Origin: a virus
Lineage: Duplodnaviria > Heunggongvirae > Uroviricota > Caudoviricetes
DNA: 4,525 nt
Virus record (IMG/VR): IMGVR_UViG_2751185970_000012
Direction: 5' to 3' (one strand)
The position numbers were made by a program, and so were the translations under genes. Shown piece by piece: positions 839 to 4,525 of this stretch (position 1 is its first letter; each line of letters begins with the position of its first letter). Under the pieces are notes generated by a model that was not told the DNA's origin, searched no databases, and worked only from the letters and a program-made list of their open reading frames with translations.

Positions 839-1130
839 TGGCTGTCTCCTGAAAAATCACCGCATGCCCCAGTTTCTCCGCCAGCGCCAGTTCTGCCTTA
901 GCGCCTGCTGACCGCTGCCAGCCTTTCAGCATGTAAATCGCATCCACACAACGAATCATCGCCATGCAGATATCCATGTACTGCGGCTGTGTCAGCCCGT
1001 CCGGAAGTACTGCCGGGTTTAAGACGGTATGCCCTTCCCGTTTCAGTTCCTCTTCCGCATTGTGAAACGCCTCACGGTTGAAATTTTTATACCCGGTCAT
1101 TGGACCGGCGATATAGACTCTCACCCTCAC
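825..1130 (-). CDS. DUF4406-like small protein (nucleoside 2-deoxyribosyltransferase-like fold), 101 aa
   Basis: N-terminal VYIAGPMTG and downstream LKGWQRSAGAKAE motifs match the DUF4406 pattern (..IYIAGPMTG...NPA...GW..S.GA..E) as I recall it; GTG start at 1130-1128 overlaps upstream TGA as GTGA; AGGAGG 7 nt upstream. Confidence 0.75.
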   Translation of the reverse strand: MRVRVYIAGPMTGYKNFNREAFHNAEEELKREGHTVLNPAVLPDGLTQPQYMDICMAMIRCVDAIYMLKGWQRSAGAKAELALAEKLGHAVIFQETASVQD

Positions 1131-1549
1131 GCCATCACCTCCTGAAAATTACCCTGATAAAACGACAATATGCGCTGCATAACTTCGCTCTTCCGGCACT
1201 CGCGACAGATTATGTTTAGGCGACTGTCGTAGCGACGTATTTCTCCGTCAGGTAATGACCAGATAAGGTCCGGATCAACCGCAGATGGTTTCTTCAGCTT
1301 TGCCCTTGAGAGCTTTTTACGGGCATTTTGCCAGTCCTTACGCGCCTGTTCAGACGGGAATAACCCGTAACCAGAGTTGTATACATCGCCACTGGCAACC
1401 AGCTCTCTGGCCAGAACGCTCATCAGATATCTTGTTGCCCCAGTTTTAGCTTCCAGTTGTCGTAACGTCTCGCGCCCACTCTGGCGTACGAGTTCAAGAA
1501 CCTGCCCTTTAATTTTTTCCCGCTCTTCTTGTGTAAAAACTTTTGCCAC
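1127..1549 (-). CDS. Hypothetical protein, 140 aa, basic, with possible winged-helix-like N-terminal region; function unknown
   Basis: ORF with GTG start at 1549-1547 preceded by TTTTCAGGAGG (4-nt spacer); lies directly downstream of the replication initiator in the same operon. Confidence 0.6.
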   Translation of the reverse strand: MAKVFTQEEREKIKGQVLELVRQSGRETLRQLEAKTGATRYLMSVLARELVASGDVYNSGYGLFPSEQARKDWQNARKKLSRAKLKKPSAVDPDLIWSLPDGEIRRYDSRLNIICRECRKSEVMQRILSFYQGNFQEVMA

Positions 1550-1589
1550 AAGCCCTCCTGAAAATTACCTCATGACCAGAAATTAACAC

Positions 1590-2660
1590 TTACCCCCTGA
1601 AGCCCGGCGGAATTTCGTTATCCGGTTCAGAAATATGATTCACACAACGCTGGTTGTTCGTGCCGCTTACCGGGAGCAACCAGGGGTTCTCAAAATTCCG
1701 GTCCGGTCCAAAAAACGTCGTCGCTCGCTGAACAAATTCCGTTCCCGTTTTCCCGGTAGCCGCCAGGTATCTTGCGTAACGCCTCACGCCATCCAGCATG
1801 GCCTCTGGTGGCACCCCCTCGCGTAATCTGGCCTTCCAGGCACTGAAAGCGGATTTCTTCGGGTTTGCCCCGGCACGCAACGGGTACTCCCGCCAGACCT
1901 GTTCGAACACATCCGGATAATCCACTCGTCCCACAGACTGCCCGGTGTTTTCCGGGACTACCCGATCGGCTTCCCGCTGAATGGCGGAATCGGCTTCAGG
2001 CTGCTGCAGTTGGTGTGATTGCTCCGGACTTGCGGTCATCGCCTGCTGCACAGCGCCCGAATCGGCTTTCAGCGCATACGCTGAATCGGCTTCCGGTGTC
2101 GTGCCTGCTGGCTGACCAGGATTGACGGTCTGAACATCCCCTGCCTGGTTCGTGGCGTTTTTTACGCCATGGACCATAGTGTTTTGATCTTCTTGATCTG
2201 TATCTTTATCTGTATCTTTATCTGTCGTGACTCGTCGTGACATGTGCGTGACATATCGTGACGCGCCGTGACAATCGCCATTTTGTTCCCGCTTTCTTTC
2301 CCTCTCTCGCTGCGCCCTCTTGCGCTCTGCAGGAGATTTTGCGGTTTGCGAAATATTGCCGTTGTCCTCTTTCAGCACCTGGCGTTTTTCCCATCCAGTG
2401 ATTAAATCACCATCAAGTACCCGCCCCTGCATCGTCTGCAAAATTGAATCAATTACCTCTTCTGTCACGTCGAGCGCACTTGCCAAATCTTCTGTCGTGA
2501 CATCAATGTGACCTCGCGTGACATTTCGTGACGCGCTCACCAGGAGGTGGATATACACTGCCATCACTGTTGCAATTGGCTGCCCTGACACCCTGGCAAT
2601 TGTTCGCCACTTAGGGTCATTTGGCATGTCATGCCATAATCTGAGCCAGGCGTTAGCCAT
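1590..2660 (-). CDS. Phage replication initiation protein (O-like / replisome organiser type)
   Basis: 356-aa ORF from ATG 2660-2658 (AGAGGTG SD about 5 nt upstream); ORF-track start at 2666 is GTG two codons earlier. C-terminal FEQVWREYPLRAGANPKKSAFSAWKARL...FFGPDRNFENPW fits the conserved F..W..YP.K.GK..A..AW motif of phage replication initiators; internal iteron-like repeats; sits after Cro-like and CII-like genes. Confidence 0.8.
   Translation of the reverse strand: MANAWLRLWHDMPNDPKWRTIARVSGQPIATVMAVYIHLLVSASRNVTRGHIDVTTEDLASALDVTEEVIDSILQTMQGRVLDGDLITGWEKRQVLKEDNGNISQTAKSPAERKRAQRERERKREQNGDCHGASRYVTHMSRRVTTDKDTDKDTDQEDQNTMVHGVKNATNQAGDVQTVNPGQPAGTTPEADSAYALKADSGAVQQAMTASPEQSHQLQQPEADSAIQREADRVVPENTGQSVGRVDYPDVFEQVWREYPLRAGANPKKSAFSAWKARLREGVPPEAMLDGVRRYARYLAATGKTGTEFVQRATTFFGPDRNFENPWLLPVSGTNNQRCVNHISEPDNEIPPGFRG
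2196..2231. repeat. 12-bp tandem repeat ATCTGTATCTTT x2 plus a diverged third unit ATCTGTCGTGAC, encoding the acidic (DKDT)n segment of the initiator
   Basis: Direct reading of 2196-2231; abuts the first CGTGAC array; two GATC sites just upstream at 2186-2189 and 2195-2198. Confidence 0.7.
2221..2272. repeat. Iteron-like array 1: five direct CGTGAC repeats at 10-11 bp phasing
   Basis: CGTGAC at 2226, 2236, 2247, 2257 and 2267 (spacings 10, 11, 10, 10); contains the 18-mer GTGACATATCGTGACGCG, nearly identical to one in array 2. Confidence 0.6.
2464..2535. repeat. Iteron-like array 2: CGTGAC / TGTGAC at 10-11 bp phasing plus one inverted copy
   Basis: GTCACG (inverted) at 2464-2469; CGTGAC 2496-2501, TGTGAC 2507-2512, CGTGAC 2517-2522, CGTGAC 2527-2532; 18-mer GTGACATTTCGTGACGCG at 2518-2535 differs by 1 nt from 2248-2265. 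Confidence 0.6.
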
Positions 2661-2731
2661 ACTCACCTCTTTTGATACCGAATCTTTTTACTCACAAATT
2701 GCCGGAAGTGATCCGGTATGAATATTGCGAG

Positions 2732-3157
2732 TCAATGCACAGCCACAATATTTCCTGCAGGGCCACCACGATTCATCTGGTTGAAACCAGCGATCGCCAC
2801 TGCGACAAAATCATCAGCGTCTCTCACCAGTCGTTCCCGCGTCTCCACTAGTTCCCGAAAATAGGCTGAGCTATGGCTGCGCATTCGGGCCACCAGCAGA
2901 GGTGGCATTGCTTTTTCGATAGCTGGTAACAACGCCTGAATTTTTTTAAGCGCATCAGGGGTGTCTTTCTCCACCCAGCGGAAAATTTTCTGAGTATTGC
3001 GAGCCAGGGCTTCCGGATGGCTGTCGTCATACAGTTCCGGGAACGTCATTCCCAGCTCGAAATACGCTTTGGTAATTTTCGCAGCCGGTACTTTTTCGCC
3101 GTCCGGATGCGCCCAGGCATTCATCGCCATGCGGATGTGTTCATGCTTGATTTTCAT
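2732..3157 (-). CDS. CII-like regulator, YdaT-like (Rac prophage type), 141 aa
   Basis: ATG at 3157-3155 with GGGAG SD 7 nt upstream; start overlaps upstream stop as ATGA; N-terminus MKIKHEHI and position right after the Cro-like gene match my recollection of Rac YdaT; not verified by search. Confidence 0.7.
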   Translation of the reverse strand: MKIKHEHIRMAMNAWAHPDGEKVPAAKITKAYFELGMTFPELYDDSHPEALARNTQKIFRWVEKDTPDALKKIQALLPAIEKAMPPLLVARMRSHSSAYFRELVETRERLVRDADDFVAVAIAGFNQMNRGGPAGNIVAVH

Positions 3158-3408
3158 GAATCAACTCCCATCAGCTTTTTCGTAGTAGTTTTATTCCTGC
3201 CAATAGTTAAAATTGCATCGGCAGAAAATAATCCGTTTGATGCAAGAGCGATTTTTTCAGCGTAATTTGTTTCGCCGGTATATTCTGTGCGAGGCAATTT
3301 TCCGTTATCCATCCATTTATAGATTGCTCTTTGGCTGACACCACAAACGTCGGCCACAACAGCAACGCGAACAGTTTTGATTACATCTTCAAGTGTTTTC
3401 TGGTTCAT
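3154..3408 (-). CDS. Cro-like HTH DNA-binding protein (YdaS-like), 84 aa
   Basis: HTH segment VADVCGVSQRAIYKWMDNGKLP; start placed at internal ATG 3408-3406 because it follows TGAGGGTGAT (strong SD, 4-nt spacer); divergent from the repressor gene. Confidence 0.7.
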   Translation of the reverse strand: MNQKTLEDVIKTVRVAVVADVCGVSQRAIYKWMDNGKLPRTEYTGETNYAEKIALASNGLFSADAILTIGRNKTTTKKLMGVDS

Positions 3409-3487
3409 ATCACCCTCACAATGTGAACTTTGAGTACATGCCATAACAGAACTGACAGTACATTCAAGAGCGAATATCATTGAACTT
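3409..3487. promoter_or_regulatory. Divergent promoter/operator region between the Cro-like and repressor genes (OR-like)
   Basis: 79-bp intergenic region between divergent starts; two AGTACAT motifs (3433-3439, 3457-3463); rightward -35 CTGACA 3452-3457, 17-bp spacer, -10 TATCAT 3475-3480, ending 7 bp before the repressor ATG. Confidence 0.5.
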
Positions 3488-3907
3488 ATGGTTCATGAAG
3501 ATAAAGCGCGTAAAGAGTTCGCCAGTAGGCTTGCGCTAGCCTGTGAAAACGCTGGTTATGAACAACATGGAAGGCAGGCAGAAATTGCCCGTCGAATGAA
3601 ATTAACACCAAAAGCGGTTAGCAAATGGTTTAATGGCGAAACAATTCCTCGCCGGGAGAAATTAAGGGAATTAGCAACACTAATAGGAACAACACCAACC
3701 TATCTTTTGGGAGAGGATACAGAAGAAAGTGGACAGGTACGTTTCTATCAGGAGTTAAATCCAAGACAAAAAATCATCATTGACCTTCTGGACGAGCTCC
3801 CTGACAGTGAGACAGATGAACTTTTAAAAACTCTTGAAGAGAAAAAACAGAAGTACAATGCAATTTACGAAGAGTTAGCACGAAAGAAAAAACAAAAAGC
3901 CTCTTAA
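3488..3907 (+). CDS. XRE-family HTH repressor, DicA/RacR-like (CI analogue without S24 peptidase domain), 139 aa
   Basis: HTH segment QAEIARRMKLTPKAVSKWFNGETIPRREKLRELATLIGTTPTYLLGED; acidic/basic helical C-terminus; no peptidase domain; divergent from the Cro-like gene. Confidence 0.8.
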   Translation: MVHEDKARKEFASRLALACENAGYEQHGRQAEIARRMKLTPKAVSKWFNGETIPRREKLRELATLIGTTPTYLLGEDTEESGQVRFYQELNPRQKIIIDLLDELPDSETDELLKTLEEKKQKYNAIYEELARKKKQKAS

Positions 3908-3970
3908 ACCAGCATAAATCCGGTAGCGCCTTCCTCCGGGTTTGTGCTTCACTTTATCCCATCTCATTTT

Positions 3971-4030
3971 TTTACACACAAAATGTACCATAAGCACTTT
4001 ACAACAATGAACGCAAAGTACATTATATAC
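3971..4030 (+). promoter_or_regulatory. Candidate PL-like promoter/operator downstream of the repressor gene
   Basis: ATGTAC 3983-3988 (reverse complement GTACAT) and AGTACAT 4017-4023, the same motif as in the OR-like region; -35 TTTACA 3998-4003, 17-bp spacer, -10 CATTAT 4021-4026. Confidence 0.35.
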
Positions 4031-4204
4031 CTGCCACCCACCCCGCCCCACAGAATGCAGGGCAATACTTCGAGTTACCAGGCAGTGGTCAGGGGTTAAG
4101 TAGCCAGCCCGAGGCGTAAGAACATGACGGCAGGGTTCAACTTTAATAACTATGCAGCAGGTTTTTGTTCCGCTACCCCGGCGTTAAGGGGAAATGAGGT
4201 CAGC

Positions 4205-4228
4205 ATGGATACTATCGATCTTGGGTAA
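4205..4228 (+). pseudogene. 5' remnant of a rightward ORF (MDTIDLG...) interrupted by the IS1 insertion
   Basis: ATG 4205 preceded by TGAGG (5-nt spacer); reading frame runs directly into the IS1 terminus at 4224 and stops at TAA within it. Confidence 0.3.
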
Positions 4229-4525
4229 TGACTCCAACTTACTGATAGTGTTTTATGTTCAGATAATGCCCGATGACCTTGTCATGCAGCTCCACCGATT
4301 TTGAGAACGACAGTGACTTCCGTCCCAGCCTTGCCAGATGTTGTCTCAGATTCAGATTATGTCGCTCAATGCGCTGAGTGTAACGCTTGCTGATAACGTG
4401 CAGCTTTCCCTTCAGGCGTGATTCATACAGCGGCCAGCCATCCGTCATCCATACCACGACCTCAAAGGCCGACAGCAGGCTCAGAAGACGCTCCAGTGTG
4501 GCCAGAGTGCGTTCACCGAAGACGT
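4224..4525 (-). mobile_element. IS1-family insertion sequence, partial: inverted copy identical to 1-302; continues beyond window end
   Basis: 4224-4525 is the exact reverse complement of 1-302; terminal repeat GGTAATGACTCCAACTTACTGATAG faces inward. Confidence 0.9.
4239..4523 (-). CDS. insB: IS1 transposase InsB, C-terminal portion (5' end outside window)
   Basis: Translation identical to the InsB fragment at 3-287. Confidence 0.9.

Follow-up and report, generated by a model that had tools for sequence, protein, structure and literature searches.

Probable HK022-type operator sites around the gene of a short repressor in a decaying lambdoid prophage region

INTRODUCTION

Three copies of the word AGTACAT lie beside the gene of a 139-aa helix-turn-helix (HTH) repressor in a 4,525-nt stretch of prophage DNA (the window), raising the question of whether they belong to the operators of a phage genetic switch and, if so, of which immunity type. 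The window starts and finishes in two inverted IS1 copies, whose ends occupy positions 1–302 and ∼4225–4525, with C-terminal InsB ORFs; the 3.9 kb between them comes from the early region of a lambdoid prophage. The minus strand encodes Ead/Ea22-like, DUF4406, DUF977, O-like replisome organiser, YdaT-family and Cro-like proteins, and the plus strand carries the repressor gene (3488–3907) and, beyond an intergenic region, a ydfA-like gene truncated by IS1 after its first ∼7 codons. The features under discussion are as follows, with promoters as predicted and with scores from a PWM built only from the annotated operators of phages HK022 and HK75:

3154–3408, minus strand: Cro-like gene, 84 aa from the ATG at 3408, with homology to HK022 Cro
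3424–3438, plus strand: OR1, TGAACTTTGAGTACA, aligning to HK022 oR1 TGAACTTATGGTTCA (430–444 of the HK022 record); 17.1 bits
3440–3467, minus strand: PR-like promoter, –35 TTGAAT (3467–3462), 16-nt spacer, –10 TATGGC (3445–3440)
3448–3462, plus strand: OR2, AGAACTGACAGTACA, aligning to HK022 oR2 GGAACTGATAGTACA, 24 bp from OR1; 13.6 bits
3452–3480, plus strand: PRM-like promoter, CTGACA-17-TATCAT, from a consensus scan (10/12 matches)
3481–3495, plus strand: OR3, TGAACTTATGGTTCA, 15/15 identity with HK022 oR3 (487–501 of the HK022 record); 20.3 bits
3488–3907, plus strand: repressor gene, 139 aa; HK022-CI-type HTH (residues ∼1–77), linker, DicA-type helical C-terminal domain
3984–3998, plus strand: OL2, TGTACCATAAGCACT, aligning to HK022 oL2 TGTACTATTGGTACT, 24 bp upstream of OL1; degenerate
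3998–4026, plus strand: PL-like promoter (dicBp equivalent), TTTACA-17-CATTAT (–35 at 3998–4003, –10 at 4021–4026), from the consensus scan and alignment to HK022 pL
4008–4022, plus strand: OL1, TGAACGCAAAGTACA, aligning to HK022 oL1 TGAACTTTAAGTACA; 13.8 bits

RESULTS

The AGTACAT words are halves of a 15-bp site

The initial annotation had placed AGTACAT at 3433–3439, 3457–3463 and 4017–4023 on the plus strand, and all three positions, which adjoin the repressor gene, are confirmed. The word is strongly over-represented in the window as a whole, with four matches on both strands against 0.31 expected, a count that none of 200 shuffles reaches. The fourth copy (976–982, minus strand) is found inside the DUF4406 gene, where it scores below 6 bits and lacks a partner half-site, and is best read as a chance occurrence. 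Each of the three copies flanking the repressor gene, by contrast, is preceded by GAAC exactly 4 nt upstream. The words are real, but the 7-mer is not the unit that it had been taken for; the unit is a 15-bp pseudo-palindrome, TGAAC-N5-GTWCA, of which the word supplies the right half. A repeat search independently finds a four-member, 16-nt family at 3424, 3448, 3481 and 4008, and the pattern TGAACNNNNNGTWCA, with at most one mismatch allowed, matches at these four places only (7 strand-hits versus 0.57 expected; 0/200 shuffles reach 7).

The 15-bp unit also changes the number of sites. Two operators, recovered here as OR1 and OR2, had been proposed for the 79 bp that separate the Cro-like and repressor genes, but this divergent region carries a third, OR3, that was overlooked because the site reads GTTCAT rather than GTACAT. 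Likewise, the core ATGTAC at 3983–3988 had been located correctly as the reverse complement of the word, although it is one half, the left, of OL2, a degenerate fifth site at 3984–3998. At a threshold of ≥10 bits, the HK022/HK75 PWM detects exactly these five operator places in the window and nothing else, and no hit of ≥6 bits falls within 1093–3424 or 3495–3984.

Operators and promoters align with those of HK022

As reference we used the 15-bp operators annotated in GenBank for HK022 (X16093) and HK75 (HM173637). The 79-bp divergent region aligns to the annotated oR1–3 of both phages without gaps, and the spacing is the same in the window and in HK022 (OR1–OR2, 24 bp; OR2–OR3, 33 bp; OL2–OL1, 24 bp). 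The OL/PL region matches HK022 position for position, with an identical pL –35 (TTTACA) and CATCAT as the HK022 –10. The view that the half-site differs from the lambda operators is correct, but the sequence is not new, being that of the HK022 operator. Two further HK022 elements have no counterpart in the window by PWM: OL3, located 53 bp upstream of OL2 in HK022 (the corresponding window positions, 3931–3945, read TTCCTCCGGGTTTGT), and OFR, located beyond cro.

The overlap of the AGTACAT words with promoter elements, proposed earlier, is borne out by the consensus promoter scan and by alignment to the annotated pR and pL of HK022. OR1, the operator closest to the Cro-like gene, lies directly downstream of the PR –10 and over the PR start region, and its offset from the repressor ATG is constant in all homologous loci. 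OR2 is situated between the PR –10 and –35; the predicted PRM –35 (CTGACA) falls in its spacer, where TGA.A is kept in 8/8 distinct OR sequences. The PR-like promoter itself was not called by the consensus scan of the window and is assigned by gap-free alignment to HK022 pR (–35 TTGACT, –10 CATAAT). Its –10 is TATAGC in close relatives, TATATT in another relative and TATGGC in the window, the last being weak.

OR3 is a perfect palindrome that spans the repressor ATG (3488), and begins 7 nt 5′ of that ATG, as in HK022. A TATnnT hexamer occupies the PRM –10 position in all homologues (TATAAT in a Salmonella one). As the predicted PRM –10 ends 7 nt before the ATG and no Shine–Dalgarno sequence is present, the repressor mRNA is probably leaderless, a property documented for the mRNAs of lambda cI and paaR2 (PMC8630535).

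On the other side of the gene, where a terminator scan downstream of the repressor finds none, OL2 abuts the PL –35 and OL1 lies between the PL –35 and –10, overlapping the latter. OL2 scores 12.4 bits (minus strand) in the window and 13–16.5 bits in relatives. In three intact relatives the PL-like promoter heads ydfA-ydfB-ydfC-dicF-dicB.

A hybrid repressor with a DNA-binding domain of HK022 type and a tail of DicA type

In a tblastn comparison with phage genomes, the N-terminal 100 residues of the repressor match the CI proteins of HK022 and HK75. With HK022 CI, identity is 47% over residues 4–102 (99 residues, E 6e-32), and the recognition helices, TPKAVSKWFNG in the repressor and TPKAISKWFNG in HK022 CI, differ by one I/V change. 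Over 73 residues, the divergently encoded Cro-like protein shares 60% identity with HK022 Cro (E 1e-33). Similarity to DicA amounts to 29% identity over residues 30–137 (E 5e-15), including a common L-PxSE motif, and it is DicA, not the S24 repressors, that the protein resembles after residue ∼85; against the NCBIfam DicA model NF007257 the repressor scores 56.8 bits, below the cut-off of 101. The earlier description of the repressor as DicA/RacR-like thus holds for the C-terminal third, which is DicA-type, whereas both the DNA-binding domain and the divergently encoded Cro belong to the HK022 type. On the strength of these homologies, the repressor is a hybrid in which a DicA-type tail follows a DNA-binding domain of the HK022 type.

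Pfam identifies only HTH_3 in the repressor and no peptidase domain, and in alignment the protein lacks the S24 domain carried by the repressors of HK022 and of the Klebsiella, Citrobacter and Salmonella phages. It therefore falls outside the LexA-like, cleavable lambdoid CI repressors, which are defined by a C-terminal S24 peptidase domain with a Ser/Lys dyad and by an Ala-Gly cleavage site in the linker. Since the C-terminal domain is of DicA type and lacks the S24 protease domain, self-cleavage is not expected, and the repressor is probably non-cleavable. The AlphaFold (AF2) model (mean pLDDT 82.6) consists of a five-helix HTH (2–74), a disordered linker (77–87) and a helical hairpin (92–138). 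Foldseek comparison of the model with the PDB returned generic XRE-type HTH matches only, none at E ≤0.001, and nothing for the C-terminal hairpin. In RefSeq the protein is labelled merely as a ‘helix-turn-helix domain-containing protein’.

The sites are conserved in homologous immunity regions

Prophages of Escherichia coli and phages such as Tritos contain near-identical DNA, and the module is present in 1047 of 5426 complete E. coli genomes. Scanning a species-representative genome set with the repressor protein gives a single locus, in Shigella flexneri. The OR triple is found at the same offsets from the ATG in Tritos, four E. coli chromosomes (including O157:H7), S. flexneri, a Klebsiella phage, a Citrobacter phage, Salmonella phage S9-5 and two Salmonella prophages whose short repressors are merely 62–65% identical. 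All these relatives have the OL pair as well, with the exception of the Klebsiella phage, for which the stretch fetched contains the OR triple alone. Presence of the motif in homologous immunity regions had been named as a check on the operator proposal, and the OR/OL sites are there in the relatives examined.

Conservation follows the half-sites. Among eight distinct OR sequences, 27/30 half-site columns are invariant, compared with 9/15 in the spacers and 10/39 outside the operators. Exact TGWAC-N5-GTWCA occurs at the OR1, OR3 and OL1 positions only (18 loci) and is absent from the Qin prophage. The Salmonella prophages carry a HigB/HigA insertion between the repressor gene and the OL pair, which is found ∼900 bp downstream, still directly before the ydfA-like gene. 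That the pair stays with the ydfA-like promoter is the behaviour expected of PL operators and not of an element tied to the 3′ end of the repressor gene.

Taken with the HK022 homology, this conservation upholds the lambda-like OR/OL layout first suggested for the locus. As judged by sequence homology, the five sites and the two regulatory proteins belong to an HK022-type immunity region, and we put the probability at about 0.88 that AGTACAT marks the right half-sites of five HK022-type operators serving the OR/OL switch of the 139-aa repressor.

Decay of the prophage copy and alternative readings

The prophage in the window is decaying. On the left, IS1 has inserted simply, with a 9-bp duplication. 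On the right, ∼1.8 kb of the PL operon, dicF and dicB included, has been deleted, and IS1 now borders a recE-like gene. Three IMG/VR contigs have the same right-hand IS1 junction, and the left IS1 is present in two of them and absent from one. A composite IS1 transposon carrying an immunity cassette is ruled out by both ends, the left IS1 being a simple insertion that is missing from one contig and the right IS1 forming a junction with the recE-like gene after the deletion. A plasmid search gave mostly IS1 matches and no plasmid with the whole region.

Over 3409–4230, four substitutions (3442, 3989, 3991 and 3995) set the window apart from four compared relatives. The first changes the PR –10 from TATAGC to TATGGC (minus strand), and the other three all fall in OL2, where the substitution at 3995 breaks the right half-site (GCACT; GTACT in every relative). 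The three contigs that share the right-hand IS1 junction all have the OL2 allele, and they vary at 3442. A reading of the PR –10 and OL2 changes as selected regulatory mutations has consequently been replaced by one of lineage polymorphism.

These lesions make it conceivable that the sites are relics, i.e. HK022-homologous operators of a switch that no longer works, with a weak or non-cooperative hybrid repressor, a mutated PR and OL2, and a deleted PL operon. The defective OL2 right half is found only in the IS1-bearing lineage, the T-to-C change in the PR –10 is also specific to that lineage, ∼1.8 kb of the PL operon has been lost to IS1, and a second IS1 interrupts the region on the left. 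We nevertheless consider this reading unlikely. The repressor ORF is intact and its product is 100% identical to the protein of inducible or sequenced phages such as Tritos; the repressor gene, OR1–3, OL1 and the PRM –10 are all unchanged with respect to the relatives; and the ydaT-like and replication genes that remain still require repression.

Less probable again, to the point of being very unlikely, is the reading in which AGTACAT is itself the unit, as direct repeats for another protein or as a product of promoter hexamers and AT-rich intergenic composition. The three plus-strand copies do share one orientation and do touch promoter hexamers, but exactly 10 bp upstream of each stands a conserved partner, TGAAC or AGAAC, and spacers vary while both half-sites stay fixed. 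Moreover, OR3 and several homologous sites have GTTCA instead of GTACA, the last T of the word is not conserved (GTACAG in HK022 oR2), and the one copy that lacks a partner, at 976, lies within a gene.

That the sites are DicA-type operators of a repressor sharing its specificity with Qin DicA is suggested by DicA similarity along the whole protein (at a low score) and by a ydfABC-dicF-dicB operon downstream in relatives, as in Qin, but is highly improbable given that Qin has neither TGWAC-N5-GTWCA nor a PWM hit of ≥9 bits between dicC and dicA or between dicA and ydfA, pointing to a different specificity for DicA, that the DicA helix-turn-helix reads SHVSVSQWERG against TPKAVSKWFNG here, and that the NCBIfam DicA score is under the cut-off.

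DISCUSSION

Proposed working of the switch

The positions, spacing and conservation of the sites are observed directly, as is the homology of the proteins; with the sites read as HK022-type operators, the working of the switch may be proposed from that homology. Dimers of the 139-aa repressor would bind through the HK022-CI-type HTH, one monomer to each half-site, with the half-site centres 10 bp apart. Occupancy of OR1 and OR2 would block PR and keep the cro-like, ydaT-like and replication genes silent, and occupancy of OL1 and OL2 would block PL, the dicBp equivalent; all three promoters are likewise predicted to be active on the basis of their alignment or consensus match. As OR3 sits on the start of the apparently leaderless transcript, its occupancy is expected to give negative autoregulation of the repressor, whereas the HK022-type Cro homologue, acting on the same sites, would shut off PRM. 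OR2 contains the predicted PRM –35, about –33 from the presumed start, an arrangement unlike the activating geometry of lambda, in which OR2 lies near –42. This difference in PRM/OR2 geometry makes positive autoregulation uncertain.

Cooperative binding of HK022 CI to adjacent operators and OL–OR looping are described in PMC8053113, which cites Carlson & Little 1993. HK022 CI cooperativity needs the S24-type C-terminal domain, which is absent from the present repressor, and therefore neither cooperativity nor looping is transferable from HK022 to this switch. The mode of induction would also be different, as relief of repression is expected to proceed via an antirepressor or some other RecA-independent route and not by self-cleavage. 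Short repressors of the DicA/RacR/Gifsy class remain uncleaved on SOS induction and are controlled by antirepressors (PMC3121763; PMC10448788). The window is without an antirepressor gene.

Significance

The switch is an ordinary phage genetic switch whose operator sequence was already known from HK022, and the accepted view of such switches is unchanged by these findings. Their main value is in annotation, in that an immunity module very common in E. coli and Shigella is placed in the HK022 type, and five operators and three predicted promoters are placed to the base. Only one feature stands out as mildly unusual: an HK022 DNA-binding domain and a DicA-type tail are naturally fused, in a clear case of modular exchange between cleavable and antirepressor-controlled repressors, and this fusion predicts cross-immunity with HK022-type phages. 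A stronger interpretation is that of a domain swap in which the HK022 DNA-binding domain, Cro and operators were kept and the RecA-cleavable S24 domain was replaced by the DicA-type tail, resulting in HK022-type immunity that is insensitive to SOS; we advance this tentatively, at slightly under even odds. Should binding to HK022-type operators be tight, approximately 1 in 5 complete E. coli genomes, as well as Shigella remnants like the window, would carry with the module an SOS-insensitive immunity directed at superinfecting phages of HK022 immunity type, and one operator code would serve two induction logics (self-cleavage and antirepressor).

Comparison with known systems

The Qin system of E. 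coli K-12 (DicA/DicC/dicBp) resembles the window in its short repressor (135–139 aa) that has no cleavage domain and has a homologous C-terminal region, in the divergent cro-like gene, and in a PL equivalent just 3′ of the repressor gene that drives ydfABC-dicF-dicB (in intact relatives of the window). Operators have been reported at both Qin promoters (PMC10448788). The two differ in the DNA-binding domain and in operator sequence, HK022-type sites being absent from Qin.

The PaaR2/YdaS/YdaT system of CP-933P (E. coli O157:H7) likewise has a short, non-S24 repressor with an apparently leaderless mRNA (PMC8630535, PMC9986795), OR operators in the divergent region and OL operators at the PL promoter. 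It also shares a YdaT-type CII analogue and a TTGATTN6AATCAA site at the end of the cro-like gene, of which the window has an exact copy at 3147–3164. In CP-933P, however, the operators are four 18-bp palindromes with consensus GTTTAGTAA repeats, the Cro analogue is YdaS and not an HK022-type Cro, and the repressor gene is followed by a toxin–antitoxin pair.

Lambda shares with the window the bipartite operators around the repressor gene, three OR sites, and the overlap of operators with PR, PRM and PL; the spacing of adjacent operators in lambda is 24 bp, the same as in the window. It differs in half-site sequence and in site length (17 bp versus 15 bp in the window), and has three OL sites where the window has two. 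The 33 bp between OR2 and OR3 in the window put OR3 on the transcript start and start codon and not between the PRM hexamers, and the S24 domain is lacking from the window repressor.

HK022 shares its operator code with the window. The common features include the 15-bp operators with TGAAC/GTWCA half-sites and the bracketing of the PL –35 by oL1–2. Apart from OL3 and OFR, the differences are these: the 235-aa HK022 CI ends in a LexA-like S24 C-terminal domain, whereas the 139-aa repressor has a DicA-type helical tail; nun lies downstream of HK022 PL, whereas the window type has ydfA-like genes; and a YdaT-type protein in the window replaces the CII of HK022. Phages 933W and phi24B show how specific the assignment is. 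Their OR layout is homologous, the sites having similar offsets and OR3 spanning the cI ATG, and their CI DNA-binding domain is ∼51% identical to that of the window repressor over residues 1–73, but OR1 has the half-sites CGTAC/GTACG and the recognition helix reads SSKGVSKWFNA. With the same architecture thus carrying other half-sites and another helix, the sites of the window are specifically of the HK022 type.

Operator substitutions and IS1 boundaries

Compared over 3409-4230 with four relatives (E. coli 14EC020, S. flexneri, Tritos and O157:H7), the window departs from all of them at 3442, within the PR -10 hexamer, and at 3989, 3991 and 3995, within OL2; its repressor gene is 100% identical to that of three of the four. 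Three IMG/VR contigs that share the window's IS1 junction also carry the OL2 allele, and among them position 3442 is either C or T. Either chance or selection for altered regulation may account for the substitutions at 3442 and in OL2.

Inverted IS1 copies form both boundaries of the window, whose two ends are exact reverse complements:
1-302, left IS1
4225-4525, right IS1
The left copy, missing in one IMG/VR contig (L016), is a simple insertion that generated a 9-bp target duplication. The right copy marks a junction of ydfA, at codon ~7, with a recE-like gene, where ~1.8 kb is lost (i.e. the rest of ydfA, ydfB, ydfC, dicF, dicB and a DUF1482 gene). A composite transposon is rejected on the strength of this simple insertion on the left and the ~1.8-kb loss on the right (IMG/VR contigs L016-L018).

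Additional recognition sites

A weaker conserved site, TnnCCTTAAAGTTCA, is carried 53 bp upstream of OL2 by HK022 and by S24-type Citrobacter and Salmonella phages:
1209-1223, HK022 (L004)
2274-2288, Citrobacter phage (L007)
789-803, Salmonella phage (L008)
The HK022 site is probably the OL3 of Carlson & Little; the oL3 of the HK75 GenBank record is annotated elsewhere (3241-3255). No counterpart of the HK022 site is present in the window. A fourth AGTACAT, the half-site of the initial annotation, occurs at 976-982 (-) within the DUF4406 gene, lacks a partner half-site and is most likely a chance occurrence.

The junction of the cro-like and ydaT-like genes carries an exact match to the YdaT palindrome 5'-TTGATTN6AATCAA-3', which has been footprinted as the OM site in prophage CP-933P, where it lies at the ydaS end (PMC8630535, PMC9986795):
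3147-3164, YdaT recognition palindrome, TTGATTTTCATGAATCAA
It covers the cro-like gene stop and the ydaT-like gene ATG. The window holds two further matches, each with three mismatches, which is the chance level.

The module in other prophages

In O157:H7 strain 3384 (L011, 2242-3633), the same repressor/OR/OL module is attached to a left operon of the Rac type (ydaF, sieB, kilR), which replaces ydfABC-dicF-dicB; the mosaic junction falls soon past the PL region, ~130 bp beyond OL1, corresponding to window ~4152. Salmonella prophages L013 and L014 encode a short repressor (62-65% identical) and carry a HigB-toxin/HTH-antitoxin pair between the repressor gene and OL/PL (3053-3720 and 3088-3755, respectively). 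In lambda the corresponding position belongs to rexAB, and in CP-933P to paaA2-parE2.
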